This document shows positions 1-62,691 of a DNA stretch of 64,000 bases, piece after piece. Every line of letters begins with the position of its first letter. Position 1 is the stretch's first letter. This stretch comes from an uncultured Chitinophagales bacterium (GTDB taxonomy: Bacteria > Bacteroidota > Ignavibacteria > UBA10030 > UBA6906): positions 13,899 to 77,898 of the forward strand of contig CAZIHJ010000001.1 of NCBI GenBank assembly GCA_964538485.1. The letters are read 5' to 3'. The notes beneath the pieces were generated by a model. That model did not search any database. It saw only the letters and a list, made by a program, of their open reading frames with translations, and was not told where the DNA came from. The translations under genes and the position numbers were made by a program.

Positions 1-392
1 TTGATGTTGGCAATGGGAAAGCGAAGAGTGGCAACATCGACAAAATTCGTTGGAACGGTGGCGCCGCTGTCAAGGCCGCCAAGATATTCTATGTTTAACG
101 AACTGACATTTCCCGAAAGCGCGGTCAGACTCAACGGTGAATAGATCGTGCCATCTGCAAAATTGTGAGAGGCCTGGACGGTTGGTGTATTCAATCCGCT
201 ACCGTAGGAAAAAGCAAGGTTCGTCGTTCCCAGTTTGAATGCTGACCCATTTGCTTTGATCTGCACCTTCACGTCCAGAGTATTGCCATCGTTTGCGATT
301 TCAATAAATTGAACGCTATATGAATCGGCGAACGCCTGTGAAGCTGCGAGTAGTATGCCGAACAAGAGTCGGATGAGCATAGTTCGTTTCAT
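1..392 (-). CDS. Hypothetical secreted protein, partial (3' end lies beyond window start)
   Basis: Reverse-complement ORF not in the supplied track because it runs off the window edge. ATG at 392 (alt 380) gives MKRTMLIRLLFGILLAASQAFADSYSVQFIEIANDG..., a classic signal peptide followed by an open frame to position 1. The ORF is the only local evidence. Confidence 0.4.
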   Translation of the reverse strand, partial: MKRTMLIRLLFGILLAASQAFADSYSVQFIEIANDGNTLDVKVQIKANGSAFKLGTTNLAFSYGSGLNTPTVQASHNFADGTIYSPLSLTALSGNVSSLNIEYLGGLDSGATVPTNFVDVATLRFPIANI

Positions 393-50550: not shown

Positions 50551-51120
50551 TTACGAAAAGGGATTTCTATTGTGCTTTGCTTGTTCCAGGAGACTGGAGC
50601 AATAGGCACAAAAGCTATGACTTTTCATATCGAGTTCTTCCACATACGACGCTGCATGCATGACGCATGAATGCTGTGAGCAGTGCACGAGGCCCAGCGA
50701 GTGTCCGAGCTCATGAGTTGCTACTTTTTGCAAACGTTCCCGGACAAGGAGTGTATTTGACGGAAGTCCGTACAGCTCATTGCGGAATCGGTGATATGAT
50801 ACAACGGCAACATTCCCGCCCAGCGGGGCCTCGCCGAACACATATGTGAGTATGGGTATATACAAGTCATACCCTGTCACTCCGACGAGTTGCACCCCAT
50901 TGTCTGCGTGCCGCGGTTTTGCGCTGTTGAGTTGAGCCAGGAAATGCAGAATAGCGGTAGAATTGTATTGCCCCCGCTGCACGTCGTAGAAACGATCAAT
51001 GGCAAAGCGGTCCGGACAAATTCTTACCGGGACGCCGAACGTTTCGTGCAACGTCGAGTCCAAACCATCAAATACACCGGGGTCAACCTCTGCCAGCGGT
51101 TGTACCTCAATTGCCGTCAT
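50551..51120 (-). CDS. Archaemetzincin-family zinc metallopeptidase
   Basis: HELGHSLGLVHC (HExxHxxGxxH) followed by Cys-rich CSQHSCVMH...CAYC, characteristic of AmzA. Confidence 0.75.
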   Translation of the reverse strand: MTAIEVQPLAEVDPGVFDGLDSTLHETFGVPVRICPDRFAIDRFYDVQRGQYNSTAILHFLAQLNSAKPRHADNGVQLVGVTGYDLYIPILTYVFGEAPLGGNVAVVSYHRFRNELYGLPSNTLLVRERLQKVATHELGHSLGLVHCSQHSCVMHAASYVEELDMKSHSFCAYCSSLLEQAKHNRNPFS

Positions 51121-52459
51121 TGCGCTTTAAACCGTACTTCTGAATCTTGTGATAGAGCGTTACCCGGTCAATGTCAAGAATTGTGGCTGCGCGGCTTACA
51201 TTCCATCCTGTTTCGGCGAGAACCTCTTTGATATACTTGTGCTCCACATCTTCAAGTGTCTTCCTGCCATTGATTCCGACTACAGATGTTCTCAATGGAA
51301 GATGGTCCTTTTCAATTGTCGATCCGACACTCACCACAACAGCACGCTCGATTGCATTCTCCAACTCACGCACATTTCCCGGCCATTCATACCCCTTTAG
51401 TTCGAGCATGGCTTCACGCGAAAACCCCTCGATCCTCTTGTTCATGGCACGCGAATATTTATCAAGGAAATGATGGGCGAGTTTTGCAATATCTCCCTTC
51501 CGGCTACGGAGGGGAGGGATATGAATTGGAAAGACATTCACACGGTAAAAGAGATCTTCCCGGAACGTCCCGTCCTTAACCGCTTGCTCAAGGTCTTTGT
51601 TCGTTGCACAAATCACCCTGAAATCCGACGTGAGCACATCGCTTCCACCGACTCGTGTGAACTGCTTTGTCTCAATGACGCGGAGCAAGTCCATTTGCGT
51701 CTTTGGGTCAATGTTGCCGATTTCATCAAGGAACAATGTCCCTCCGTCGGCCATCTCGACTTTTCCCTTCCTCCGGTACTGCGCACCTGTAAATGCCCCC
51801 TTTTCGTGGCCGAAGAGTTCACTCTCCAGCAATGTCTCAGTCATCGCGCCACAGTTTACCGTGACGAGAGAAAAGAACTTTCGTTGACTGGCATTGTGAA
51901 TGGCCCGTGCTACCAGCTCCTTGCCTGTGCCGCTCTCACCGCGAATCATGACCGTGGTGTCCGCGACGGCAACGGTCTTCACAAGTTTCAAAACGTTGAG
52001 AATTTCAGGCGATTCTCCCACAATCTCATCCCCGCTGGTGAGTTCGCTGACTGCATCTTTCAACCTCTGATTTTCCTTCAGCAGTTCCTGTTCCTTGAGG
52101 ATCTTCTCCACCAGATGATCAAGGTAATCGGGGTCAATGGGTTTGGTGATGTAGTCGTACGCACCATCCTTGAGGGATTTCACGGCGGTATCCACCGCAG
52201 CAAACGCCGTGATAATGATAACGGCGATATGTTTGTTGGTCTCCTTTACACGATGCAACAGCTCGATCCCATCCATACCAGGCATCCGGATGTCGACAAA
52301 CATGATATTCCAACGATTCAATTGCAGTTTTCTTAGTGCGGCTGCGGCATTCTCCGCCACGTCAACACGGTACCCCTCTTCGGCAAACCACTTTGATAGT
52401 GATTCCCTCACAATCAACTCATCGTCCACGACGAGAATCCCGATCTCATTGTTGTTCAT
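51107..52459 (-). CDS. Sigma-54-dependent response regulator (NtrC family)
   Basis: REC (ILVVDDE...DIRMPGMDG), GESGTGKE, GAFTGA, and a Fis-type HTH at the C-terminus. Confidence 0.9.
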   Translation of the reverse strand: MNNNEIGILVVDDELIVRESLSKWFAEEGYRVDVAENAAAALRKLQLNRWNIMFVDIRMPGMDGIELLHRVKETNKHIAVIIITAFAAVDTAVKSLKDGAYDYITKPIDPDYLDHLVEKILKEQELLKENQRLKDAVSELTSGDEIVGESPEILNVLKLVKTVAVADTTVMIRGESGTGKELVARAIHNASQRKFFSLVTVNCGAMTETLLESELFGHEKGAFTGAQYRRKGKVEMADGGTLFLDEIGNIDPKTQMDLLRVIETKQFTRVGGSDVLTSDFRVICATNKDLEQAVKDGTFREDLFYRVNVFPIHIPPLRSRKGDIAKLAHHFLDKYSRAMNKRIEGFSREAMLELKGYEWPGNVRELENAIERAVVVSVGSTIEKDHLPLRTSVVGINGRKTLEDVEHKYIKEVLAETGWNVSRAATILDIDRVTLYHKIQKYGLKRNDGN

Positions 52460-54110
52460 AATCCATTTCCTTTCTTATTCCGGAAGTGTCCGGTTGCGAT
52501 GCATCCACTTCTTGCTTTACCGGAAACGTCAAGGTGAATGTAGTTCCTGCTCCCGGCCTGGAGTCCACGAGGATGGTCCCGTGGTGGTGCTGAACGATCC
52601 CATACACGACCGCCAGACCCAGACCAACACCCTTGCCTTCAGATTTTGTTGTGAAGAATGGCTCAAAAACGTGCGCCTTCACATCGTTGCTCATTCCGCA
52701 TCCTGTATCACTTACGCGAAGGATGACCTTTTCGGGTTGCTGCTGTTGCACCTCGATCTTCAGCGTTCCACCTGAAGCTCCGGGGGAGTCCATTGCTTCG
52801 ATTGCATTCGACATCAAGGCGATAAGCGCCTGTTGCAGTTGATTGGAATCTCCATCCATTACGACATCGTCTGCACGCGACACGATCACATCGATTCCAT
52901 GCATCCGGGCGTGGTGGCTCATGAGCATAACGCATCGATCCACAACCGTGTTCAAGGAAAGAGCGCCAAATGATCCGCCCCGATGTCGCGCAAAGACGAG
53001 CAGGTTCTTCACGATATTGCCACAACGGAGCGATTCATCTGCGATGAGTTTCAGTTCATCATGCATTTGCAGAAGTTCTTTTTCCGTGAGGGTGTTTCGT
53101 TTCACCCTCTTCATCAACAGTCTTGCAAATGTCAGAATGCCTTCAAGCGGGTTATTAAGTTCATGGGCAACAGTCGCCGCAAGGTTTCCTAACGATGCCA
53201 TTTTCTCCACTGTCACCATATGCCTGTGCGCCCGCTCCAGGTCCGCAGTTTTCTCTTCAACCTTCTGCTCGAGAGTTCGGGACCATTCTGTGAGTTCTTC
53301 CCGCGCCGCGGCGAGGTCATCCGTCATCCGGTTGAACGTTACAGCGAGCGTCCCGAGCTCATCACGCGATGTTGCTTCGAGTTTCTGATCCAGTTGGCCG
53401 GACGATACCAACTGCATTCCAGTCATCAATCGTTTAACAGGCCGGTTGATGACCATCCAAATGAAGCCCCCCGAAATCAAGGAGATCAACAGCACGGCGG
53501 CAAACGAAAGGAGGAGGAGCTGGTTTCTGCTTTGTTGCAGATGGACGTCCACCTGTGCAAGTGACATTTTTACGTCCAGCACCCCGAGGATGGTTTTCGA
53601 TTCCGGGTGTGCATGACACGCGGCGTCTGAACATTGCTGTTCATTCCTGATCGGAGTGATGAGTCCGAGAACGCGATCACCGTTCGGTTTGCTGAACACA
53701 CGGGTGAGCTGAGCAGGTGTTTGGGAGACGCTATCGAGATGCGAAGACGAATGACAGCTCACACACGCCTCGGCGTTCACGTCAACCTGGGTGTGCGTTT
53801 CATCCGGAATGGATCCGAAGATCACTTCACCCTGTTTGTTGTAAATGCGGATTCCCTCGAGTCCCGGCTCACCCCCGACCGAAGTGATGATGCTGCGAAC
53901 ATCATCTTTTTGATTGAGCAACATGCTGTGGCGCGTGGAGCGGGCGATGAGATCGCTGACGCGCGTCGCACTCATGATCACATTTTCCATAATGTGAGAC
54001 TGCTGGATGTGGACCGCGGCGAAGGTCAACGCAAACAGTATGATCGTCTGTACAGAGACGATCAACAAAAAGAGTCTGAACGCGATTGTCCTTGTGAGTT
54101 TCATAACCAT
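52446..54110 (-). CDS. Sensor histidine kinase with periplasmic sensor domain containing CXXCH motif(s), HAMP, HisKA, HATPase
   Basis: TM1 (residues ~8-33), a ~155-aa periplasmic domain containing ACVSCHSS (CXXCH) and CSDAACHAH, TM2, HAMP, an H-box HELNNPLEGI, and G-boxes DTGCGM and GVGLGL. Confidence 0.85.
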   Translation of the reverse strand: MVMKLTRTIAFRLFLLIVSVQTIILFALTFAAVHIQQSHIMENVIMSATRVSDLIARSTRHSMLLNQKDDVRSIITSVGGEPGLEGIRIYNKQGEVIFGSIPDETHTQVDVNAEACVSCHSSSHLDSVSQTPAQLTRVFSKPNGDRVLGLITPIRNEQQCSDAACHAHPESKTILGVLDVKMSLAQVDVHLQQSRNQLLLLSFAAVLLISLISGGFIWMVINRPVKRLMTGMQLVSSGQLDQKLEATSRDELGTLAVTFNRMTDDLAAAREELTEWSRTLEQKVEEKTADLERAHRHMVTVEKMASLGNLAATVAHELNNPLEGILTFARLLMKRVKRNTLTEKELLQMHDELKLIADESLRCGNIVKNLLVFARHRGGSFGALSLNTVVDRCVMLMSHHARMHGIDVIVSRADDVVMDGDSNQLQQALIALMSNAIEAMDSPGASGGTLKIEVQQQQPEKVILRVSDTGCGMSNDVKAHVFEPFFTTKSEGKGVGLGLAVVYGIVQHHHGTILVDSRPGAGTTFTLTFPVKQEVDASQPDTSGIRKEMDYEQQ

Positions 54111-54281: not shown

Positions 54282-55502
54282 TCATCCCCGTGAATCTGCG
54301 GGGACAAAACCCGCTCCGGCACCCGGGAGCTCCACTGCCTCTGAAACGTGGTCAGCACCCGCCACATGGCCGTGTTCGACCTCTTTCCCGAACACATCGA
54401 AGTACCGGGCAACAAATGAGAACGCAACGAATCCAAACGCGGCGAGAGCTATGGTGATGGCAAGTTCCTGCCATGAAGGAATATATGTCCGCGTTTGCCA
54501 CTGCTCCATGCTGGTGATGGCGGTATTCAATCTGTGGGCGACGAACCCAAGCAACACAAGAACGGAGGAATAGAACAGCCCGGTTTTACTCGTCCGGACT
54601 TTCTTGAACAGGAGCAGAGCGAAAGGAACCAGCACTCCCAATACGACTTCGCCAATGAACATCATGCTCTGGTACGTTGGTTCAAACACGTATTGTAATG
54701 CATCCCGATTCACCAGATCCTGAATTCGTACAGTGAAGTACAGAGCAAGCACGACTACCACGACTTTCGCCAACTGGGAGAGCAATGGCAGTTCTATTTC
54801 TCTCCCGAAGGCTCGCGCTGAAAGGAAGGATTCGAAGATCGTCATGCACAACCCTGCCGCAACGCACGAGATGATGAAGAGAAACGGAATGACGTTGGAA
54901 TACCAGAGCGGGTGCATTCTGCCTGGGATGATAAGGAACAGTGACCCGAGGGAAGACTGGTGGAGAGTAGAAAGAAGCACACCCGCAACGACCAATGGAA
55001 TAGTGATTGCCTTGACGACCTTCAACGCTCGCTTGAGCCGGAAACGCTCAAGAATCACGGGGCTAAACTCCAACGCGAGCACCGTGGTGTACAGCATCAC
55101 GCACCAGGCAACTTCGAACATCACCGATCTTGGGTTCCAATAAATGAGTGCGTGCCAGATGGCCCACGGACGCCCGAGATCAACCATCAGGCCTGCAATG
55201 ACAAGCAGATATCCGAGAAACGCTGTAAGAATGGTTGGTCGGAGAATTGGTCTGAACCGCTCAATGTTGAAGATATACACTGCCGCCGCGATCGTGAATC
55301 CGCCTGCTGCGAGTCCGACCCCAACCAGAATATCGAACCCGATCCATAATCCCCACGGAAATGTATCTGCGAGATTAGTTGTGGCCCCGAGGCCGAGAGT
55401 GAAGCGCTGGATCGTCGCCACAAGTCCGGCCACCATCAACGCCACGGCAACTACTTTCCAAAAAGTTATCTTAAGAAGTCCAGGAAATTTCATGATCATC
55501 AC
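54282..55502 (-). CDS. NrfD/PsrC-family polytopic membrane quinol-interacting subunit
   Basis: Roughly 10 TM helices with the NrfD-like pattern (GLWIGFDILVGVGLAAGG...). Start codon overlaps the stop of the upstream NrfC-like gene. Confidence 0.8.
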   Translation of the reverse strand: MMIMKFPGLLKITFWKVVAVALMVAGLVATIQRFTLGLGATTNLADTFPWGLWIGFDILVGVGLAAGGFTIAAAVYIFNIERFRPILRPTILTAFLGYLLVIAGLMVDLGRPWAIWHALIYWNPRSVMFEVAWCVMLYTTVLALEFSPVILERFRLKRALKVVKAITIPLVVAGVLLSTLHQSSLGSLFLIIPGRMHPLWYSNVIPFLFIISCVAAGLCMTIFESFLSARAFGREIELPLLSQLAKVVVVVLALYFTVRIQDLVNRDALQYVFEPTYQSMMFIGEVVLGVLVPFALLLFKKVRTSKTGLFYSSVLVLLGFVAHRLNTAITSMEQWQTRTYIPSWQELAITIALAAFGFVAFSFVARYFDVFGKEVEHGHVAGADHVSEAVELPGAGAGFVPADSRG

Positions 55503-56281
55503 CTTGTGTTAGTATTTGCTTGATCGTCTTTTTTGCGCAACTCCTCGGCTTCGAACCTCGCTACTTCTGTTCGACGTGCGGTGATCCAATGAATGCCGAA
55601 GAGTACCACGCTCGCTGCAACCGTGTACTTCGGAATTTGTGAGAGCACGCGCCACGAGAGATTGGGAATCGGCTCATTTGGAATGTTCATCGGGAAACCG
55701 AGCTTCTCAAACGGTATGGCAGAGATGTACAGGACGGAAGTTCCCCCGGCCTCTTTCAGTCCATAGATGTAGTTCACATACTGTCCGGGATTCTCGTCGA
55801 TGCGTTTTCTTGCTTCCGTGATCATCTCATCCCGATCACCGAAGGTTGTCGCTCCGAACTGGCACGCTTCAGCGCATGCTGTTGGCTGACCTGCAGTCAC
55901 GCGCTCATAGCACATCTTGCACTTCTGGACTCTTGGCGCAAGACTGCTCCATTCATAGCGTGGGATCTCAAATGGACATGCCTGCATACAGTACCGGCAT
56001 CCGATGCACTTCGACTCATCGTAGACAACGGCACCGGTTTCTGTCTTAGTGAACGCTCCCACGAGACAGGCAGAAACACACGTCGGCTCGTTACAGTGCA
56101 TACACAGTTTGCGCACATGGACTTCGTCATTCTGGAAGCTTTTCAACACGGTGTATCGGGTTGAGGAGAGCTCCTGCCCATCCTCCTGGGGAAGACCGTT
56201 TGTTTCTGCGCAGGCACGTGTGCATTCGCCACACCCCACACACTTGGTGATATCGATAAGCAACGCTTTTGACGTACTCAT
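55499..56281 (-). CDS. NrfC/PsrB/HybA-like 4x[4Fe-4S] ferredoxin subunit with C-terminal TM anchor
   Basis: CVGCGECTRAC, CMHCNEPTCVSAC, CIGCRYCMQACP and CKMC...C clusters, plus a C-terminal hydrophobic helix. Confidence 0.85.
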   Translation of the reverse strand: MSTSKALLIDITKCVGCGECTRACAETNGLPQEDGQELSSTRYTVLKSFQNDEVHVRKLCMHCNEPTCVSACLVGAFTKTETGAVVYDESKCIGCRYCMQACPFEIPRYEWSSLAPRVQKCKMCYERVTAGQPTACAEACQFGATTFGDRDEMITEARKRIDENPGQYVNYIYGLKEAGGTSVLYISAIPFEKLGFPMNIPNEPIPNLSWRVLSQIPKYTVAASVVLFGIHWITARRTEVARFEAEELRKKDDQANTNTR

Positions 56282-56991
56282 TGGCCGATCTCCTTGTGAT
56301 CAGACTCTTGTGCTTTGCGTAAGGTCGTGAACGTGTGACCGAAATCCTCCCAGATGCGATCGTCAAGCTGCTGGAGAACGCCGTCGACCGGCAACCCGCC
56401 CTCCTGTAAGGTCACCGGCTGTCCCTCCATCTCATTCATCGCAATAAAGTCCCGCACCAATACCACTTGTTCCCGCAACCATTCCATCGGTTGGCGGATA
56501 ATGTATTGTCGTGATGCTGCAATATCATCTACCCTTGATTTCAAACGGACAAGCCATCCCTTTCCATACGGATCAGTCATTATGAGCGAAGGGTCTCTCA
56601 GAACATCAGGGTTCGGCTCGACAACTCCACCGGCAACAGGTGTTGCCAGCCGGAATGATCGGCCGTTCGCACCCATTGAAAAATCAGCAAAAGAGGGTCT
56701 CGTCGTCTCTCCAGCGGGTGGGACGGCGATTGTTTCAACTACTCCCATCAGCCGGCTGAGAAACCCGTCAATCCCCAGCGTAATTGTCCCATCGTGGTTG
56801 GTCCGCATCCACATATGGTTGGTAGCGAGTTCGACATCCTGCGGGAGGTGACTCGGGAGTTGGAAAGGCCGTGGCCGCGATGTCGCCTGGAATGGCTTTC
56901 GCACCGCGACAGGCCGGCTACGTTTTTTTTGAACAACGTGGTCGATTGCCAGGAAAGTAATCAGTGTGCACAGCACGAGTAAGACAGTCAT
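56278..56991 (-). CDS. Membrane-anchored glycine-cleavage H-protein-like (GcvH-fold) protein lacking the lipoyl-lysine
   Basis: N-terminal TM helix, then NHMWMRTNHDGTITLGIDGFLSRLMGVVETIAVP...PYGKGWLVRLK. This parallels GcvH (KEHEWL...GITEHAQ...VFVDLP...ESVKA...SEPYAGGWIFKIK) but no Lys sits at the lipoylation position. GGAGG RBS. Confidence 0.6.
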   Translation of the reverse strand: MTVLLVLCTLITFLAIDHVVQKKRSRPVAVRKPFQATSRPRPFQLPSHLPQDVELATNHMWMRTNHDGTITLGIDGFLSRLMGVVETIAVPPAGETTRPSFADFSMGANGRSFRLATPVAGGVVEPNPDVLRDPSLIMTDPYGKGWLVRLKSRVDDIAASRQYIIRQPMEWLREQVVLVRDFIAMNEMEGQPVTLQEGGLPVDGVLQQLDDRIWEDFGHTFTTLRKAQESDHKEIGQ

Positions 56992-57003
56992 GGTAGTTCT
57001 CCT

Positions 57004-57657
57004 CTATGATTTCAATTTCTTTTCCGTGACTAACGAACCGTCACGCACATCGACATGGAAAAACTGGCGAGCGATGCTCGACCACTCTTCGTCCGAGCAC
57101 TTGTCAGCGAGATTCTGCAACAGAACACCACCCTCCTGGAACATCAATGCGGGTGTTCTCGAAAAGAACCTGAGAAGTTCAGCGCGTTCCATATCCTGCC
57201 ATTTGATAGCCGCCCTTCCAGTGAAGAGATTGTTCAATTGGAAGTTGAGTTTGGTTGGCCGCACTTTGAGCAGCCATCCATCACCATAGGGGGAGCTATT
57301 GACAAGTGCAGGGTTGTTCTTCACCATTTCATTTTTTTCGATTACCCAACCGGTCACCGGACTTCTCATGGGCACCACTCGATTACCATGCCGTACGACC
57401 CATCCAACCTCCCCCTGGCGTACGCGACGAAGCAACCGTGGGAGCCTCAACTCATCAACGGCCCCGATGACTGATTGCCCGAAATCATCGATCCCGATAA
57501 CAACATCTCCATCCCGGGTCTGTCTCATCCATGTATGACCCGGATGCATGTAGCGTTTCACCATCACAGGTTCAGGATGGGCTTCAGGTTTTTCTTTTGC
57601 CATCATTCGGATGAGAATGATGACCGTCGCAGTGATTATTGCAAGTATAAGCGACAT
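57004..57657 (-). CDS. Membrane-anchored GcvH-like protein, paralog of the downstream gene, lacking lipoyl-lysine
   Basis: Trimmed to the ATG at 57657, which has an AGGAGG RBS. TM helix, then YMHPGHTWMRQTRDGDVVIGIDDFGQSVIGAVDELRLP...RHGNRVVPMRSPVTGWVIEKN...NSSPYGDGWLLKVRP, which aligns with GcvH position by position. The lipoyl-Lys is replaced by RHGNR. Confidence 0.6.
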   Translation of the reverse strand: MSLILAIITATVIILIRMMAKEKPEAHPEPVMVKRYMHPGHTWMRQTRDGDVVIGIDDFGQSVIGAVDELRLPRLLRRVRQGEVGWVVRHGNRVVPMRSPVTGWVIEKNEMVKNNPALVNSSPYGDGWLLKVRPTKLNFQLNNLFTGRAAIKWQDMERAELLRFFSRTPALMFQEGGVLLQNLADKCSDEEWSSIARQFFHVDVRDGSLVTEKKLKS

Positions 57658-58038
57658 GGCAACCTCCTTTGGGTTTCTGTTCACCTCTGTCGAAGAGTAA
57701 TAGTCCCAAGAAGTTTGCCAGATCACTCACGGGTTTTCAGCGGTGTAAACTCGTGCGACACAATAGGTTGAAACCTGTTGCAAAAACGAACATGTGATGA
57801 GATGAAACAAGAAGTTGAATAACACAACAGCGCCTTCGGCTGAGAGTCGGGATTTTAGCTGGATCTGGTTGTTATCAATGGAGTTGGAAGTGTGTTGAAA
57901 ATTGAAGCGAGAATGTGTAAGTAATCATCACTTCCAGACTGGAGAGTCGCTGATGCGGGAACAAAGTCAAGCCACGCTCATGTTGCCCCACCGGACGGAC
58001 TTTACACCTCCGAAAGTAACTGTTGAGGTTTTCAATAC

Positions 58039-58052: not shown

Positions 58053-58191
58053 CCCCTTATTTCTCACAACTGAGAACCTCCACCCATGATTGAGATGCAA
58101 TTTCAGCGTTTTCATTGCTTTCTACCTCGGCATGTGCTTTGAATCTATGAAGGGTGTTGATTTGACAATACAACGGTTGATCTATCAGGTG

Positions 58192-60330
58192 ATGAAAACC
58201 TTTACACTCATACTGACACTTGTCTTCTCTTCGAATGTTGGACCGGATCTTCTGGCCCAGGACAACAATCAGTGTTTGACCTGTCATGGCGAGCATGCCC
58301 TTTCTATGGAGAAGAGGGGAAAGTCAATTTCCCTTTTTGTGAATCCGCCCGCATTCCAGAAGTCAGCACACGGTGATCTCGAATGCGTTGGATGTCACGA
58401 AGGACTTTCTGGCGACGAGATTCCGCATGCAAAGAAGATCAATGCGGTTGACTGCATGAGCTGCCACGACAGCCAGGGGCTTACCCACTACAAGGAGAGC
58501 GTCCACGCACTGAAGAAGGCGAATGGATCTACTGCGGCTACCTGTGCGGACTGTCATTCAAAGCACGCGATTCAGAGAATCTCTGAAAAGGATCCACATG
58601 CAAGGCAAGAATTTGGTATTGGGGTCTGCGCGACGTGTCACGGTGATCTGAAAAACAAGTTCATGGCTTCGGACCATGGTAAGGCCTTCAAGGCCGGCAC
58701 AAAAGGGGCTCCGGCTTGCATAGACTGTCATGGCGAACACGGGGTCCAGTCCGCGATGAATGACTCTTCGACCACAAACCACAAGCAAGTTGCGGCAATG
58801 TGCTTGAATTGTCATCTGGACAATCCCGACGTACGCGCGAAAGTCGGGCCGTCTGCCGGGTTTGTGTCGAGCTACGAGCAAAGCGTTCATGGCCAGGCTG
58901 TGCAACATGGGAATGATATGGCTGCAACGTGTACTGACTGCCACAGCAGTCATGAGATGCGAAAGGGTTCCGATCCCGTATCAAAGGTTGCAAAGAAAAA
59001 TATCGCATCCACATGCGGACAGTGTCACGGCGATGTTGAAGAGCAGTACAAGTACAGTGTCCACGGCAAAGCGGTTGCTGCCGGTATTGGGGCTTCAGCG
59101 ACGTGCACAGATTGCCATGGCGAGCACAACATTCTTTCTCCAAAAGACGACCGTTCACCCGTCTCTGCCAGGAACGTCTCTGTGCAGGTTTGCTCTCCCT
59201 GTCACGCATCGGTCAAACTCAACGAGAAGTACGGGCTCGCCAGTGACCGGTTCCAGAGCTTTGCCGATAGCTATCATGGGCTGGCAGGACGGGCGGGCGA
59301 TGTTGAGGTTGCCAATTGTGCCAGTTGCCATGGTGTTCACGACATCAAGCCTTCTTCGGATTCCACTTCAAGGATCCATCCAAAGAATCTTGTCAACACG
59401 TGTGGTTCATGTCATCCCGGGGCGAACGAGAATTTTGCCCAGGGTTCTGTGCACGTGATTGCGACGTCCGGCCAGGACAGGGTGCTGTATTTCGTTTCCA
59501 CCTCATACATTATCCTGATTATTGTGACGATTGGAGGGATGTTCTTCCACAATCTTCTCGACTTCATCAGGAAATCAAAAAGAAAACTCATGGAACGGCG
59601 CGGGTTGATCCATCACCGACCTGCGGAAAACCGGCTGTACCTGAGGATGTCATTAGGCGAGAGGATTCAGCACGGTACATTGCTCGTCAGTTTTACAACG
59701 CTTGTTCTTACAGGGTTTGCACTCAGGTTTCCGGATGCCTGGTGGGTAGCACCTGTGCGCGATATCAGTCCGATGATGTTTGAACTCCGAAGCCTCAGTC
59801 ACAGGATTGCCGGTGTTGTAATGGTACTCGTGAGTCTCTATCATGTCTACTATGTTCTTATTGTCCCGCGAGGCAAGCAACTCCTGCGCGATATGCTTCC
59901 CGAACGGAACGATCTTACGGATGTGATTGGCGTTTTGAAATACAATCTTGGGATGGCTGCCGTGAAACCGGGGTTCAAGCGCTTCAGCTACATTGAGAAA
60001 GCGGAGTATTGGGCGCTCATCTGGGGGACGTTCGTGATGGCCGCAACCGGATTTATCCTCTGGTTTGACAACACGTTTATAGGCCTCTTCACCAAGCTTG
60101 GATGGGACGTTGCACGGACCATTCATTACTACGAGGCCTGGCTAGCAACACTCGCAATCATCGTCTGGCATTTCTACTTCGTGATTTTCAACCCGGACAC
60201 GTATCCCCTCAACCTCGCTTTCTGGAAGGGAACGCTCACTGAGGAAGAAATGCGGGAAGAACATCCCCTGGAGTTGGATGAATTGAAGCGAGAGGAAGAA
60301 TCGGAAAAAGAAATAGGCGGGGAGAGTTAG
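58192..60330 (+). CDS. Multiheme cytochrome c (13 CXXCH) fused to C-terminal di-heme cytochrome b (FdnI/PhsC/HybB-like) membrane domain
   Basis: Trimmed to the ATG at 58192 (signal peptide MKTFTLILTLVFSSNVGPDLLAQ). Thirteen CXXCH motifs occur between residues 30 and 440. The C-terminal ~270 aa forms 4-5 TM helices with conserved His pairs (IQHGTLL...; SHRIAGVVMVLVSLYHVYYV; WHFYFVIFNP), typical of b-type cytochrome subunits of formate dehydrogenase or hydrogenase. Confidence 0.8.
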   Translation: MKTFTLILTLVFSSNVGPDLLAQDNNQCLTCHGEHALSMEKRGKSISLFVNPPAFQKSAHGDLECVGCHEGLSGDEIPHAKKINAVDCMSCHDSQGLTHYKESVHALKKANGSTAATCADCHSKHAIQRISEKDPHARQEFGIGVCATCHGDLKNKFMASDHGKAFKAGTKGAPACIDCHGEHGVQSAMNDSSTTNHKQVAAMCLNCHLDNPDVRAKVGPSAGFVSSYEQSVHGQAVQHGNDMAATCTDCHSSHEMRKGSDPVSKVAKKNIASTCGQCHGDVEEQYKYSVHGKAVAAGIGASATCTDCHGEHNILSPKDDRSPVSARNVSVQVCSPCHASVKLNEKYGLASDRFQSFADSYHGLAGRAGDVEVANCASCHGVHDIKPSSDSTSRIHPKNLVNTCGSCHPGANENFAQGSVHVIATSGQDRVLYFVSTSYIILIIVTIGGMFFHNLLDFIRKSKRKLMERRGLIHHRPAENRLYLRMSLGERIQHGTLLVSFTTLVLTGFALRFPDAWWVAPVRDISPMMFELRSLSHRIAGVVMVLVSLYHVYYVLIVPRGKQLLRDMLPERNDLTDVIGVLKYNLGMAAVKPGFKRFSYIEKAEYWALIWGTFVMAATGFILWFDNTFIGLFTKLGWDVARTIHYYEAWLATLAIIVWHFYFVIFNPDTYPLNLAFWKGTLTEEEMREEHPLELDELKREEESEKEIGGES

Positions 60331-60573
60331 AAGTGAAGGTCAACGGAAAAAAGGTAGTCCCTTTTTCATCCTTTTGGACTATTTCCAGGAACTTGGAAAG
60401 TCCCTATTGTCTTGTCATAGATGGTAGTATGGCAAATCAGTGAATGACCATTTCAATATGATACTTGTGGAGCGGGCAGTTCTTTGTTACATTAGCTGCG
60501 GTTGCTATGAGTTCCACCCGTTCTTTTCTTCGAATGCTCCAACACTAACACCAACATTTGCATAGGGAGAAAA

Positions 60574-61116
60574 ATGAGATCAACCATGCAGTTTATTGCA
60601 GTCATACTTGTTACTCTCGTCGTGGTAAGCGTAAGTGCTGCGGACAATAAGTTCACGGGCGCCAAGATGTGCGCCGCGTGCCACAAGGCAGGTAAAGGCG
60701 GAACTGCTTTTGCCGTTTGGGAGAAGAGCGCCCACGCACACGCATTTCAAACATTGCTCAGTGATGCCTCAAAGAAAATTGCAAAAGAAAAGGGTTTAAA
60801 GACGGCACCCAGTGAAAGTCCGGAGTGTTTGAAGTGTCATGTCACCGGCGGCGGTGCTGCGAAGAATATTGAGGCCTCGTTCAAGAAGGAAGAAGGCATC
60901 ACATGCGAAGCATGCCACGGGGCGGCATCCGGCTACAAGATGCTTCACAGCAAGGGTGATCTTGCAAAGTCAAAAGCGGCAGGAATGGATCCCGGGCAGA
61001 AAGATGCGAAATTCTGCGTTACCTGTCACAACGCTGAGAGTCCCTCACACAAATCAGCTTTCAAACTCGACGAGATGTGGTCGAAGATAGAACACCCACT
61101 GCCGGCAAAGAAATGA
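60574..61116 (+). CDS. Periplasmic tetraheme cytochrome c (c3-like)
   Basis: Signal peptide, then CAACH, CLKCH, CEACH and CVTCH in 180 aa. Confidence 0.8.
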   Translation: MRSTMQFIAVILVTLVVVSVSAADNKFTGAKMCAACHKAGKGGTAFAVWEKSAHAHAFQTLLSDASKKIAKEKGLKTAPSESPECLKCHVTGGGAAKNIEASFKKEEGITCEACHGAASGYKMLHSKGDLAKSKAAGMDPGQKDAKFCVTCHNAESPSHKSAFKLDEMWSKIEHPLPAKK

Positions 61117-61128
61117 CTTGATGCGTGA

Positions 61129-61158
61129 AACCCGGCCGGTTGACGTCACCCGGCCGGG
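61129..61158 (+). terminator. GC-rich perfect hairpin (CCCGGCCGG-N10-CCGGCCGGG) followed by ATTTGTTTC; probable attenuator/terminator
   Basis: 9-bp perfect stem read from the sequence, 13 nt after the cytochrome stop, with a T-rich tail. The next gene starts 16 nt later. Confidence 0.45.
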
Positions 61159-61173
61159 ATTTGTTTCATCGGT

Positions 61174-62691
61174 GTGTTTACCACGGAGTCCCACTTGAAG
61201 CGCCGATTTCCGGATGTCATCTACAATCCCATCAGCATAGTAGGCGCAGCACTCGCAAGCGTCAGCTTTGCAACCATTCTCTTTCTAACGCTGGTCGATA
61301 TTATGCAGGAGCACCCCCCCGCATACATCGGCATTATCTCCTATGTTGTCCTTCCCATACCGTTGATCATCGGTCTGGCGCTCATCCCGATTGGCATTCT
61401 GCGCGAGAAATCCCGTTTACGCAAGGGATTGCCCGCCAGCCGGATGTCATTTAGTATTGATCTGAACATTCCAAGGCAACGGACTGCGGTGACGCTCTTC
61501 GCAGGTGCAACCGTTATTTTCCTGTTATTCACGGCGTACGGAAGTTACAGGACATTTGAATGGACGGAATCAGTCGAGTTCTGCGGTGAAACTTGTCACT
61601 CAGTGATGGAACCGGAATTCACTGCATACTTGAATTCTCCTCATGCGCGGGTAAAGTGTGTGGATTGTCATGTCGGATCCGGAGCGGATTGGTACCTCAA
61701 GTCGAAGCTCAGTGGTGCGTACCAGGTGTATGCTGTTCTGGTGGATAATTATCCCCGTCCGATCCCGACGCCGATAGCGAACTTGCGTCCGGCGCAGGAA
61801 ACATGTGAACAGTGTCACTGGCCGTCTCACTTTGCAGGTGAGAAGAAGTATGTCAACACGTACTTCAAGTCCGACGAACAGAATACGCGTTGGACGATTG
61901 CCCTTTTGATGAAGACCGGTGGAGGAAGTGCCGATCGTACTCCGACGAGCGGTATTCACTGGCATATGAATATCGCCAATGAGATTACCTACGTCGCGAC
62001 GGACAGTCAGCGTCAGACGATTCCATGGGTGAAGGTTAGAAATCAATCAACGGGTGAGGAGACCGAATATCTCTCGTCGGATGCAACGGAGTCGATGGAC
62101 CATTTCAGGCAACTCCCATCCAACAGAGTAGACTGTATTGATTGTCACAACAGGCCGTCGCACATCTATCGTCCACCTGTCCGCATTGTGGATCAGAGCC
62201 TTGCACTCGGCAGAATCAGCACGGATCTTCCCAGTATTCGGGCAGCGTCCATTCAGGCGTTGACGGAACCCTACACGTCAACGAAAGCAGCGATGGACAG
62301 TATCCCGTTGTTGATGGCCGGATTTTACGCGGATCAGTATCCCGCTGTTGCGAATGAGAAGAAGGAGTTGATCAAGGCTGCTTCGGAAGAGCTTAAAACA
62401 CAATTCAGCCGGAACTTTTTCCCCGGGATGAAGGTCAACTGGAAGGCATATCCCAACAACATCGGACATATGACAGACATCGGCTGTTTTCGATGCCACG
62501 ATGGGAAGCACGTCAGCGCCACGGGCAAGACGATCTCAAAGGATTGCAATAGCTGTCATACGATTCTCTATCAGGGCAGCGATCCTGTTCCGACAACTAT
62601 GAGTATTGCTGGATTGGAATTCCAACACCCTGAAGACATTGGTGAGATCTGGAAGGAAATGAACTGCAAGGATTGTCACACCGGGCAGTGA
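61174..62691 (+). CDS. Membrane-anchored multiheme cytochrome c (7 CXXCH; NapC/NrfH-superfamily-like N-terminus with 2-3 TM helices)
   Basis: The open frame begins after a TGA at 61141; the first plausible start is GTG at 61174. Hydrophobic helices (ISIVGAALASVSFATILFLTLV; IGIISYVVLPIPLIIGLALIPIGIL; VTLFAGATVIFLLF) precede CGETCH, CVDCH, CEQCH, CIDCH, CFRCH, CNSCH and CKDCH. Confidence 0.75.
   Translation: MFTTESHLKRRFPDVIYNPISIVGAALASVSFATILFLTLVDIMQEHPPAYIGIISYVVLPIPLIIGLALIPIGILREKSRLRKGLPASRMSFSIDLNIPRQRTAVTLFAGATVIFLLFTAYGSYRTFEWTESVEFCGETCHSVMEPEFTAYLNSPHARVKCVDCHVGSGADWYLKSKLSGAYQVYAVLVDNYPRPIPTPIANLRPAQETCEQCHWPSHFAGEKKYVNTYFKSDEQNTRWTIALLMKTGGGSADRTPTSGIHWHMNIANEITYVATDSQRQTIPWVKVRNQSTGEETEYLSSDATESMDHFRQLPSNRVDCIDCHNRPSHIYRPPVRIVDQSLALGRISTDLPSIRAASIQALTEPYTSTKAAMDSIPLLMAGFYADQYPAVANEKKELIKAASEELKTQFSRNFFPGMKVNWKAYPNNIGHMTDIGCFRCHDGKHVSATGKTISKDCNSCHTILYQGSDPVPTTMSIAGLEFQHPEDIGEIWKEMNCKDCHTGQ

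Follow-up and report, generated by a model that had tools for sequence, protein, structure and literature searches.

Two adjacent genes on the minus strand of this 64,000 nt stretch of DNA (hereafter the window), ORF A and ORF B, encode membrane-anchored proteins with the fold of the glycine cleavage H-protein (GcvH) and without its lipoyl-lysine. The tandem pair had been noticed, at these positions, in a first-pass annotation made from the letters of the DNA, and the observation is confirmed here. Judged by sequence, both are lipoate-free, cofactor-less H-protein paralogues, members of a very large, unnamed and mis-annotated family. They belong to a module, found in many anaerobe-rich phyla, that also encodes NrfC- and NrfD-like subunits, a sensor histidine kinase, a sigma-54-dependent response regulator and an M54 metalloprotease (Table 1). 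The interpretation preferred here, which has about an even chance of being right, is that ORFs A and B serve an Hmc/Nhc-type membrane complex from the cytoplasm, as accessory or regulatory subunits without a cofactor.

Table 1. Features of the module and its surroundings in the window (aa, residues of the encoded protein).
Feature	Residues	Position (nt)	Strand	Remarks
ORF A		57004..57657	-	217 aa; Lys-less GcvH domain protein
ORF A TM helix	2-21	57595-57654	-	modelled, N-terminal
ORF A Lys-less GcvH domain	35-134	57256-57555	-	
ORF A lipoyl-Lys position	Asn92	57382-57384	-	
ORF A C-terminal helical extension	137-217	57007-57249	-	with QEGG loop
ORF B		56278..56991	-	237 aa; Lys-less GcvH domain protein
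ORF B TM helix	2-24		-	modelled, N-terminal; then disordered linker
ORF B Lys-less GcvH domain	53-151		-	
ORF B lipoyl-Lys position	Gly110	56662-56664	-	
ORF B C-terminal extension	154-237		-	with LQEGGLPVDG
-24/-12-type (sigma-54-like) promoter element, TGGCAAACTTCTTGG		57706..57720	-	candidate; 63 nt upstream of ORF A ATG
Imperfect palindrome, TGCAACAG-N13-TTGTGTCGCA		57754..57782	-	starts 125 nt upstream of ORF A ATG
NrfC-like subunit		55499..56281	-	260 aa; four [4Fe-4S]-type Cys motifs; C-terminal TM tail anchor; no signal peptide
NrfD-like integral membrane subunit		54282..55502	-	406 aa; ~10 TM helices; N-terminus inside by charge bias
Sensor histidine kinase		52446..54110	-	TM, periplasmic domain with CVSCH and CSDAACH, TM, HAMP, HisKA, HATPase
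Sigma-54-dependent response regulator		51107..52459	-	REC, AAA+, HTH_8; conserved in module
M54 archaemetzincin-family metalloprotease		50551..51120	-	189 aa; HELGHSLGLVHC...C...CAYC
Divergent cytochrome genes		58090..62691	+	recurrent module neighbours
13-haem c / cytochrome b561 fusion, CbcL-like		58090-60330	+	
4-haem c554-like protein		60574-61116	+	
NapC/NirT/NrfH-type multihaem protein, ImcH-like		61174-62691	+	

An H-protein domain without its lipoyl-lysine

Homology to GcvH is borne out by profile searches. Both ORFs exceed the gathering score of Pfam GCV_H (PF01597; 22.2), ORF A with 78.6 bits (E 4.9e-22, residues 38–150) and ORF B with 53.9 bits (E 2.1e-14, residues 57–152), and H-proteins were the sole matches in phmmer searches of the PDB (best E 3.6e-15 and 2.2e-13, respectively). 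Neither ORF reaches the equivalog cut-offs of TIGR00527 (64.9 bits for ORF A and 48.3 for ORF B vs 115.85) or NF002270 (78.8 and 52.9 vs 117). The N-terminal TM helix proposed for each protein is recovered in the models and is followed by K/R residues, and Shine-Dalgarno sites are present as described, AAAGGAGGTTGCC-ATG 5′ of ORF A and AGGAG 5′ of ORF B, the latter immediately 3′ of the ORF A stop codon and 7 nt 5′ of the ORF B ATG. The contig index held no record of the exact window protein.

The canonical E-S-V-K-[AT] lipoylatable lysine at the hairpin tip is absent from both proteins. In ORF A its place is taken by the Asn of VVRHGNRVV, as first proposed; in ORF B the proposed replacement, “RPSFA” (residues 98–102), was misplaced, the equivalent position being the Gly of SMGANGRSF at the tip of a modelled hairpin (strands 104–108 and 111–115). 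There is no Lys in either hairpin. Nor is a Lys conserved at this position among the roughly 400 relatives examined (sets of 104+56, 94 and 148), which have G, N, S, H, D, C, R or K there, and no residue at or beside the tip is conserved family-wide, leaving no attachment point for a prosthetic group. With Lys-free hairpins and unconserved hairpin residues, a genuine GcvH or an alternative lipoylation site was rejected, and the suggestion of a “repurposed swinging arm” is unsupported. It is thus very improbable that ORFs A and B are functional H-proteins carrying a lipoyl or other acyl group on some modified non-canonical residue, as a swinging arm for the complex; besides the variable hairpin, their scores fall far under the GcvH equivalog cut-offs, and neither a lipoate ligase or lipoyl synthase nor a gcvT/gcvP context turned up.

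The family comprises at least 1,181 clusters at 50% identity (representatives counted at E ≤ 1e-30), a number that rules out a chance or lineage-specific oddity, and has members in Acidobacteriota, Bacteroidota, Ignavibacteriota, Desulfobacterota, Gemmatimonadota, Calditrichota and Planctomycetota. Its named members are all annotated as glycine cleavage H, a widespread error that inflates predictions of glycine and lipoate metabolism in soil and sediment metagenomes and that can now be corrected. A conserved, family-specific C-terminal extension of about 80 residues bears a conserved QDGGxPVD loop, which is modelled as disordered; the DGG loop is also present in TM-only mini-proteins of one locus (L087).

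Anchors are of two types, and proteins with one or the other align colinearly over the whole stretch between TM helix and C-terminus (hhalign E 6e-48). Type-2 relatives carry an HmcD-type anchor, Pfam PF28260 “DVU_0533” (DVU_0533 is HmcD; PMC10920352), and come after NrfD. The window ORFs are type 1 and located upstream of NrfC. They lack the N-terminal “ATKGIEYL” part of the HmcD-type motif, which counts against the subunit interpretation. In one fusion (P0298, locus L094), encoded right after NrfD, a signal peptide and four CxxCH motifs are followed by a TM helix and the GcvH-like domain; with a periplasmic tetrahaem cytochrome c on one side of the helix, the GcvH-like domain would be cytoplasmic. 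There are also soluble paralogues fused to REC or hemerythrin domains, which, like the K/R residues behind the TM helices of ORFs A and B, fit this topology, and REC-GcvH, TM-REC-GcvH and hemerythrin-GcvH genes are located within the same clusters. The tandem arrangement of ORFs A and B recurs in 10 loci, double-domain GcvH-like fusions occur naturally in Gemmatimonadota, and type-1 and type-2 genes flank NrfCD in L085 and L089. The two paralogues probably act as a pair.

Gene context in the window and across phyla

The first-pass annotation took ORFs A and B to be co-operonic with the NrfC- and NrfD-like genes, and this holds for all four genes on the evidence of short overlaps, 4 nt each between ORF B and the NrfC-like gene and between the NrfC-like and NrfD-like genes. 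The NrfC-like protein is over the gathering score of Pfam Fer4_11 (2e-23), and its best NCBIfam matches are HmcB (2.5e-74) and HybA (1.5e-59), both under their equivalog cut-offs (250 vs 420 bits). The NrfD-like protein likewise exceeds the gathering score of Pfam NrfD (4e-27), with NCBIfam HybB (6e-96) and HmcC (2e-94) both under theirs (317 vs 550 bits). Farther along, the M54 protein scores 148.9 bits against NCBIfam archmetzin (cut-off 145) and 9.6e-23 against Pfam Peptidase_M54, and the two haem-type motifs of the kinase are both kept in about 45 orthologues. The histidine kinase, sigma-54 regulator and M54 protease, the C-terminal extension and the sigma-54-type promoters discussed below were not mentioned in the earlier annotation.

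The gene neighbourhood was compared in 80 species-representative GTDB loci. In 40 of them NrfC, NrfD, the kinase, the response regulator and M54, which is the module's last gene, are all within 8 kb of the GcvH-like gene, and 11 more have some of these partners. Gene linkage to NrfC and NrfD is conserved across phyla; 29 loci have no partner within 8 kb, and many of these belong to a separate Acidobacteriaceae paralogue clade. Nine further contexts come from Desulfobacterota, Gemmatimonadota, Calditrichota, Planctomycetota and metagenomes; in all nine the GcvH-like gene is the next one after NrfD, and type-2 genes are always directly 3′ of NrfD, often overlapping it. One locus (L088) keeps the order NrfC-NrfD-GcvH-like without kinase and M54, so that the tightest link is with NrfCD. 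The partnerless loci weigh against a subunit of the complex, as does the Acidobacteriaceae gene, a separate, convergent transcription unit outside the NrfCD operon that abuts M54 and not NrfC. In the literature that was searched, no paper ties GcvH-like proteins to NrfD, Hmc or archaemetzincin.

The NrfC-like protein of the window starts with MSTSKALLIDITKCVGC and has no twin-arginine signal. About 50 orthologues of the window lineage all have the same signal-less N-terminus and conserved C-terminal TM tail, while RR signals are present in NrfC of Desulfobacterota, Calditrichota and Gemmatimonadota modules. The iron-sulfur subunit could thus lie on either side of the membrane, and the complex take more than one geometry, a point against the subunit interpretation. 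A local hitch-hiking partner for Tat export was ruled out, there being no Tat-motif ORF in the 64-kb window. The sole published case of a signal-less HybA-like protein adjoins an Fe-Fe hydrogenase (PMC10924467), and none is present beside the signal-less NrfC here. An inverted, SoeABC-like complex facing the cytoplasm is unsupported: the charge bias of NrfD (here 18 K/R inside vs 8 outside) follows the canonical pattern whether the module is of the Tat+ or the Tat-less version.

That canonical orientation also argues against ORFs A and B being escort or assembly factors that hold or insert the Tat-less ferredoxin at the membrane, possibly on its cytoplasmic side. In Bacteroidota, Ignavibacteriota and Acidobacteriota, signal-less NrfC does co-occur with modules that have type-1 proteins only; translation of ORF B is coupled to that of NrfC, and the lack of a Tat-motif ORF in the window would fit. 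However, modules whose NrfC bears an ordinary twin-arginine signal contain type-1 and type-2 proteins just the same, and nothing here resembles known redox-enzyme maturation proteins. An escort role is considered unlikely.

Candidate promoter elements and possible roles

A generic promoter and terminator scan was uninformative, and the canonical sigma-54 consensus, with up to two mismatches allowed, had no match upstream of ORF A in the window. A variant -24/-12 motif was found only by comparing orthologous upstream regions. TGGCA-N6-[AT]T[TG][GA] is located 58–71 nt upstream of the ORF A orthologue in eight of 10 Bacteroidota and Ignavibacteriota loci, including the window, against a background of 0.044 per kb per strand; G or A replaces the C of the -12 element in this variant (TTGG and not TTGC in the window). 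Upstream of the Acidobacteriaceae orthologues the canonical form, TGGCA[CT]GGCGATTGCC, is found at a fixed 62–81 nt, and sigma-54 motifs are present in 41 of 94 upstream regions overall (background 0.078 per kb per strand). Farther upstream, the imperfect palindrome is a candidate enhancer site for the sigma-54 response regulator. The TGC[AT]ACA...TGT..GCA element recurs at -125 to -132 in the window and three other loci (L005, L006 and L008) and is absent from more distant ones. The CbcL-like gene is also preceded by a weak sigma-54 candidate, TGGCATCCAATTCGCC, with three mismatches.

Together with the C-terminal extension, the kinase, the sigma-54 regulator and M54, these promoter elements speak for a role that is regulated or regulatory, and against a purely structural one. 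The proteins might even be mainly signalling elements of the two-component and protease part of the module, membrane-tethered adaptors or anti-activators with no place in the redox complex; their binding partner would be the kinase or the sigma-54 regulator, or else M54 would cut the exposed QDGGxPVD loop, with the REC-fused paralogues as a second phospho-acceptor branch. The constant company of kinase, regulator and M54 in half of the 80 loci and the REC fusions suit such a role at least as well as they suit a structural one. The adjacency to M54 in Acidobacteriaceae, the hemerythrin fusions in the same clusters, the conservation of a disordered loop that is shared with TM-only mini-proteins, and the likely status of the gene as a sigma-54 target fit as well. 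Against this, L088 lacks kinase and M54, type-2 genes adhere to NrfD, and both the HmcD-type anchor and the fusion to cytochrome c connect the protein with the redox complex; the sensor domain of the kinase is variable, with haem motifs here and dCache in L089, which suggests that the kinase senses alone. A purely signalling role is accordingly judged possible, with something like one chance in four.

A broader possibility, somewhat more doubtful still, is that the GcvH-like domain and its QDGGxPVD extension form an unrecognised output or transducer module of bacterial redox signalling, whose anchored and REC- or hemerythrin-fused copies bind the haem-less NrfD-type quinone module at its cytoplasmic face. 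Under orders from the haem-sensing kinase, it could gate the proton or quinone chemistry of NrfD. Alternatively, it could inform the kinase, the sigma-54 regulator and M54 of the redox state of the complex, with the DGG loop as protease target. If so, the NrfCD complex would be part of a signal-transduction device, beyond its function as an energy-conserving enzyme.

The part of the first-pass interpretation that fits best is a docking fold or novel subunit of an NrfD-family complex, to which the NrfC/NrfD linkage, the HmcD-type anchor and the cytochrome c fusion all point on genomic grounds. As accessory subunits of an Hmc/Nhc-type complex, ORFs A and B would each be tethered by one TM helix whose N-terminal end is outside and which aligns colinearly with the HmcD-type anchor found in their relatives, and would expose the GcvH beta-sandwich and the helical extension with its flexible loop in the cytoplasm. 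They would have two partners, the NrfD-like subunit (HmcC/HybB-like), which interacts with quinone, and the NrfC-like ferredoxin (HmcB/HybA-like), which is tail-anchored and has four clusters. This pair may connect periplasmic cytochromes with the menaquinone pool. The GcvH-like domains would not carry electrons themselves; on the cytoplasmic face they would provide a module for docking or regulation, at the NrfD loops or the conserved cytoplasmic tail of NrfC. Their synthesis could be driven from the -24/-12 promoter by two proteins of the module itself, the haem-type redox-sensing kinase and the sigma-54 regulator.

Anaerobic respiration depends centrally on NrfD-family complexes (Psr, Nrf, Hyb, Hmc, Qrc, ACIII, Dsr), and debate continues over how the quinone chemistry of the haem-less NrfD membrane subunit is coupled to the cytoplasm. 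With at least ~1,200 sequence clusters, a family that would equip such a complex with a cofactor-less H-protein fold on its cytoplasmic side, tied to a dedicated redox-sensing two-component system and a protease, offers a testable handle on its regulation or coupling. It also suggests a role for bacterial archaemetzincins, proteins of no known function.

Comparison with known systems

With GcvH (PF01597, TIGR00527), ORFs A and B have the fold and the Pfam GCV_H match in common. GcvH is soluble, about 130 aa long and found with gcvT/gcvP, whereas the present proteins combine a TM anchor with a C-terminal extension, in a respiratory and regulatory gene context.

The Hmc and Nhc complexes of Desulfovibrio include an iron-sulfur protein (HmcB), an NrfD-like protein (HmcC) and a small TM subunit (HmcD). 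Here too a tail-anchored four-cluster ferredoxin adjoins an NrfD-family subunit, although neither reaches an equivalog cut-off; among relatives of ORFs A and B, some bear the HmcD-type anchor in HmcD's place after the NrfD-like gene, and some loci encode a cytochrome c3-type partner or fusion. Unlike Hmc, the module has a presumably cytoplasmic GcvH-like domain fused to the anchor and adds a kinase, a sigma-54 regulator and an M54 protease (except for kinase and M54 in L088). HmcE and HmcF are absent, with no cytochrome b or CCG protein in the window operon; nor does this operon include an HmcA/NhcA-type periplasmic multihaem cytochrome, the cytochromes being encoded divergently, and its NrfC-like protein differs from that of Hmc/Nhc in having no Tat signal.

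In Geobacter, the cbcBA genes for an inner-membrane b/c-type cytochrome quinone oxidoreductase are switched on by the sigma-54-dependent BccR according to redox conditions. Cytochrome b and multihaem c genes are similarly found divergent beside the module here and in five other loci (L005, L016, L047, L091 and L092), although no GcvH-like, NrfC or NrfD genes are described in the cbcBA operon (bioRxiv 10.1101/2021.04.15.440034).

Other GcvH paralogues have likewise moved from glycine cleavage to redox or stress systems. LbpA of sHdr sulfur oxidation and GcvH-L of Firmicutes are soluble and keep and need the lipoylated Lys, whereas the present family is membrane-anchored and has lost it; sHdr lipoate-binding proteins have a conserved lipoyl-Lys and are encoded beside hdr-like and lipoate-ligase genes, while ORFs A and B have no such Lys and the module no hdr-like genes. 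The N-terminal barrel-sandwich hybrid domains of NqrA and RnfC have a cofactor-less biotinyl/lipoyl-like fold on the cytoplasmic side of membrane respiratory complexes, and could serve as a functional analogy for a structural or docking role.

GcvH-fold proteins without the lipoyl-lysine

The first-pass annotation had described ORF A and ORF B as a tandem, membrane-anchored pair with the fold of glycine-cleavage H-protein (GcvH) and no lipoyl-lysine, an observation that is confirmed here with one detail corrected. They score 78.6 and 53.9 bits against Pfam GCV_H (gathering score 22.2), and both fall far short of the GcvH equivalog cut-offs; solved-structure searches with either match H-proteins only. 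AlphaFold2 models (pLDDT 85.8 and 80.0) contain the N-terminal transmembrane (TM) helix claimed for each, followed by a poorly ordered linker, the GcvH beta-sandwich, and two to three helices around a disordered loop. The lipoyl-lysine position in ORF A is Asn92 (RHGNR), as originally read. ORF B has lost the lysine too, but the position falls on Gly110 (MGANGRS) at the tip of the hairpin in the model; the RPSFA first proposed lies 8–12 residues too early. Neither hairpin contains a lysine, and the expected Shine-Dalgarno sites precede both ORFs. Because they lack the attachment lysine, are membrane-anchored, and have a respiratory context, the two proteins are judged from sequence not to be H-proteins in function.

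Word-indexed searches found 111 relatives for ORF A and 58 for ORF B, named in their sources, where a name is given, always as “glycine cleavage H” or “hypothetical protein.” When 1.84 billion representatives were searched with a profile, 1,181 clusters emerged at E ≤ 1e-30; almost all are 210–240 aa long and share one architecture: TM helix, GcvH core, and a family-specific C-terminal extension (NLLxGxxAxxW...QDGGxPVDG...WxxxxxEFFL). The core retains the structural motifs HxW, GxDDF, LP, SPVxG, and PYGxGWL; the lysine position (G, N, S, H, D, C, R, or K) is unconserved in every set examined. Type 1 proteins, including both in the window, start straight with the helix (MTVLLVL.../MSLILA...); type 2 proteins have an additional ..FATKGIEYL segment, Pfam PF28260 (DVU_0533) according to the source database, and are colinear with type 1 from helix to C-terminus (profile-profile alignment, E 6e-48). 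In Desulfovibrio, DVU_0533 is the Hmc complex's hydrophobic 5.8-kDa subunit, HmcD (PMC10920352). P0189, a 1391-aa metagenome representative, is a fusion of three Lys-less GcvH domains with an FAD-linked oxidase (FAD_binding_4, FAD-oxidase_C), a ferredoxin domain, and two CCG domains, and likewise uses the fold without lipoate, next to a module of HdrD/GlpC type.

In both window ORFs the residues ahead of the helix are uncharged and K/R clusters follow it. In a Pirellulaceae relative, a single ORF directly 3' of NrfD combines a signal peptide, four CxxCH motifs, a TM helix, and a GcvH-like domain; from this layout we infer that the N-side of the helix is probably periplasmic and the GcvH-like domain cytoplasmic, with which soluble REC- and hemerythrin-fused paralogues are consistent. 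For the NrfD-like protein, charge bias indicates the canonical N-in orientation.

Gene neighborhoods

In the window, 12 nt separate ORF A from ORF B; the overlaps are 4 nt each for ORF B/NrfC and NrfC/NrfD, and 14 nt each for kinase/regulator and regulator/M54.

Features of the window and of related loci (L-numbers) in other genomes
Feature	Sequence	Position	Strand	Remark
ORF A	window	57657..57004	minus	217 aa
ORF B	window	56991..56278	minus	237 aa
NrfC-like ferredoxin	window	56281..55499	minus	four-cluster
NrfD-like membrane protein	window	55502..54282	minus	
Histidine kinase	window	54110..52446	minus	
Response regulator	window	52459..51107	minus	sigma-54-dependent
M54 archaemetzincin	window	51120..50551	minus	HExxHxxGxxH intact; constant last gene of module
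Variant promoter element	window	57720..57706		
Cytochrome cluster	window	58090-62691	plus	divergent from module
Soluble/differently anchored paralogues	L085	14922-16917		
	L087	10710-12530		
	L089	10713-11432		
Mini-ORFs	L087	7284-7556, 7559-7753		90, 64 aa
Monohaem cytochrome c	L036	14828-15262	minus	

A single peptide pattern, run against one genome per GTDB species, matched 174 relatives. The best 80 belong to Bacteroidota/Ignavibacteriota, where two copies lie in tandem like those of the window, or to one of many Acidobacteriota, where there is one copy. When these 80 loci were scored with the window's proteins, NrfC, NrfD, kinase, regulator, and M54 all lay within 8 kb in 40, a partial set in 11 (often at contig ends), and none in 29, many of them a distinct Acidobacteriaceae paralogue clade. 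A separate clade of paralogues with the hairpin RNGKK (L018, L021, L022, L025, and some 15 other Acidobacteriaceae loci) has no module genes within 8 kb, and at least one genome, SPRUCE 290, has linked and unlinked copies together (L024 and L038).

Two gene orders are found, GcvH-like–NrfC–NrfD–kinase–regulator–M54 and, in Acidobacteriaceae, NrfC–NrfD–kinase–regulator–M54 with the GcvH-like gene convergent just past M54. In nine further contexts (from Syntrophales, Gemmatimonadota, Calditrichia, a “Proteobacteria” MAG, Pirellulaceae, and metagenomes) the GcvH-like gene is always directly 3' of NrfD, with M54–regulator–kinase alongside in most; cytochrome c3, [NiFe] hydrogenase, or cytochrome b plus multihaem c genes are nearby. 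Extra paralogues inside clusters, all without the lysine, have REC, TM-REC, hemerythrin, or a Cys-rich N-terminus (CVWM..YKLCDR..CE.CPFD) joined to GcvH. One Acidobacteriaceae locus (L036) has a small class-I cytochrome c gene directly upstream of NrfC, a possible periplasmic partner.

The window's cytochrome cluster encodes a CbcL-like protein, in which a multihaem domain with 13 CxxCH motifs is fused to a membrane domain of cytochrome b561 type; a c554-like protein with four haems; and an ImcH-like protein of NapC/NirT/NrfH type (six CxxCH, one Cx3CH). L005, L016, L047, L091, and L092 have comparable cytochrome b and multihaem c genes beside the module.

Regulation and the signalling alternative

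Of 94 upstream regions, 41 have canonical sigma-54 elements (GG-N10-GC, at most two mismatches; background 0.078 per kb per strand). Where the GcvH-like gene is transcribed separately, in Acidobacteriaceae, TGGCA[CT]GGCGATTGCC lies 62–81 nt 5' of the start codon. A variant, TGGCA-N6-[AT]T[TG][GA] (background 0.044 per kb per strand), lies 58–71 nt 5' of ORF A in eight of ten Bacteroidota/Ignavibacteriota loci, including the window, and the four closest loci share a palindrome at -125. The kinase's periplasmic domain carries CVSCH (CxxCH) and CSDAACH (Cx4CH), whose conservation in about 45 orthologues suggests a c-haem redox sensor.

A serious rival reading is that the GcvH-like domain would belong functionally with the kinase, regulator, and M54 part of the module, and might be a substrate of the M54 protease, cut at the conserved, disordered DGG loop of the GcvH-like protein. 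One locus (L088) retains NrfC–NrfD–GcvH-like without kinase and M54, and the tightest link of the GcvH-like gene is therefore with NrfCD. In L087, the place of the type 1 gene is occupied by two mini-ORFs encoding a TM helix and then GLT[ML]ADGGD, which is the DGG motif seen in the C-terminal extension of the family; neither has a GcvH domain.

Comparison with known NrfCD complexes

Neither the window's NrfC-like ferredoxin nor any of about 50 same-lineage orthologues has a Tat or Sec signal; the window protein retains a C-terminal tail anchor. Module versions from Desulfobacterota, Calditrichota, and Gemmatimonadota have twin-arginine signals on NrfC, and NrfD orientation and the cytoplasmic RREEVA tail past the NrfC C-terminal helix are identical in the two versions. 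No Tat-motif ORF was found in the whole 64-kb window. Only one class of HybA-like proteins without a signal has been published; it hitch-hikes on an Fe-Fe hydrogenase (PMC10924467), an enzyme that is absent from the window.

The literature searched does not describe GcvH-like proteins together with NrfD/Hmc-type complexes or archaemetzincins, and such a module is absent from a review of the NrfD family (PMC8076601). The components belong to known families; together they would form an Hmc/Nhc-like NrfCD module with a putative new family of accessory subunits and regulatory genes of its own, a combination of relevance to specialists in anaerobic respiration and two-component signalling.
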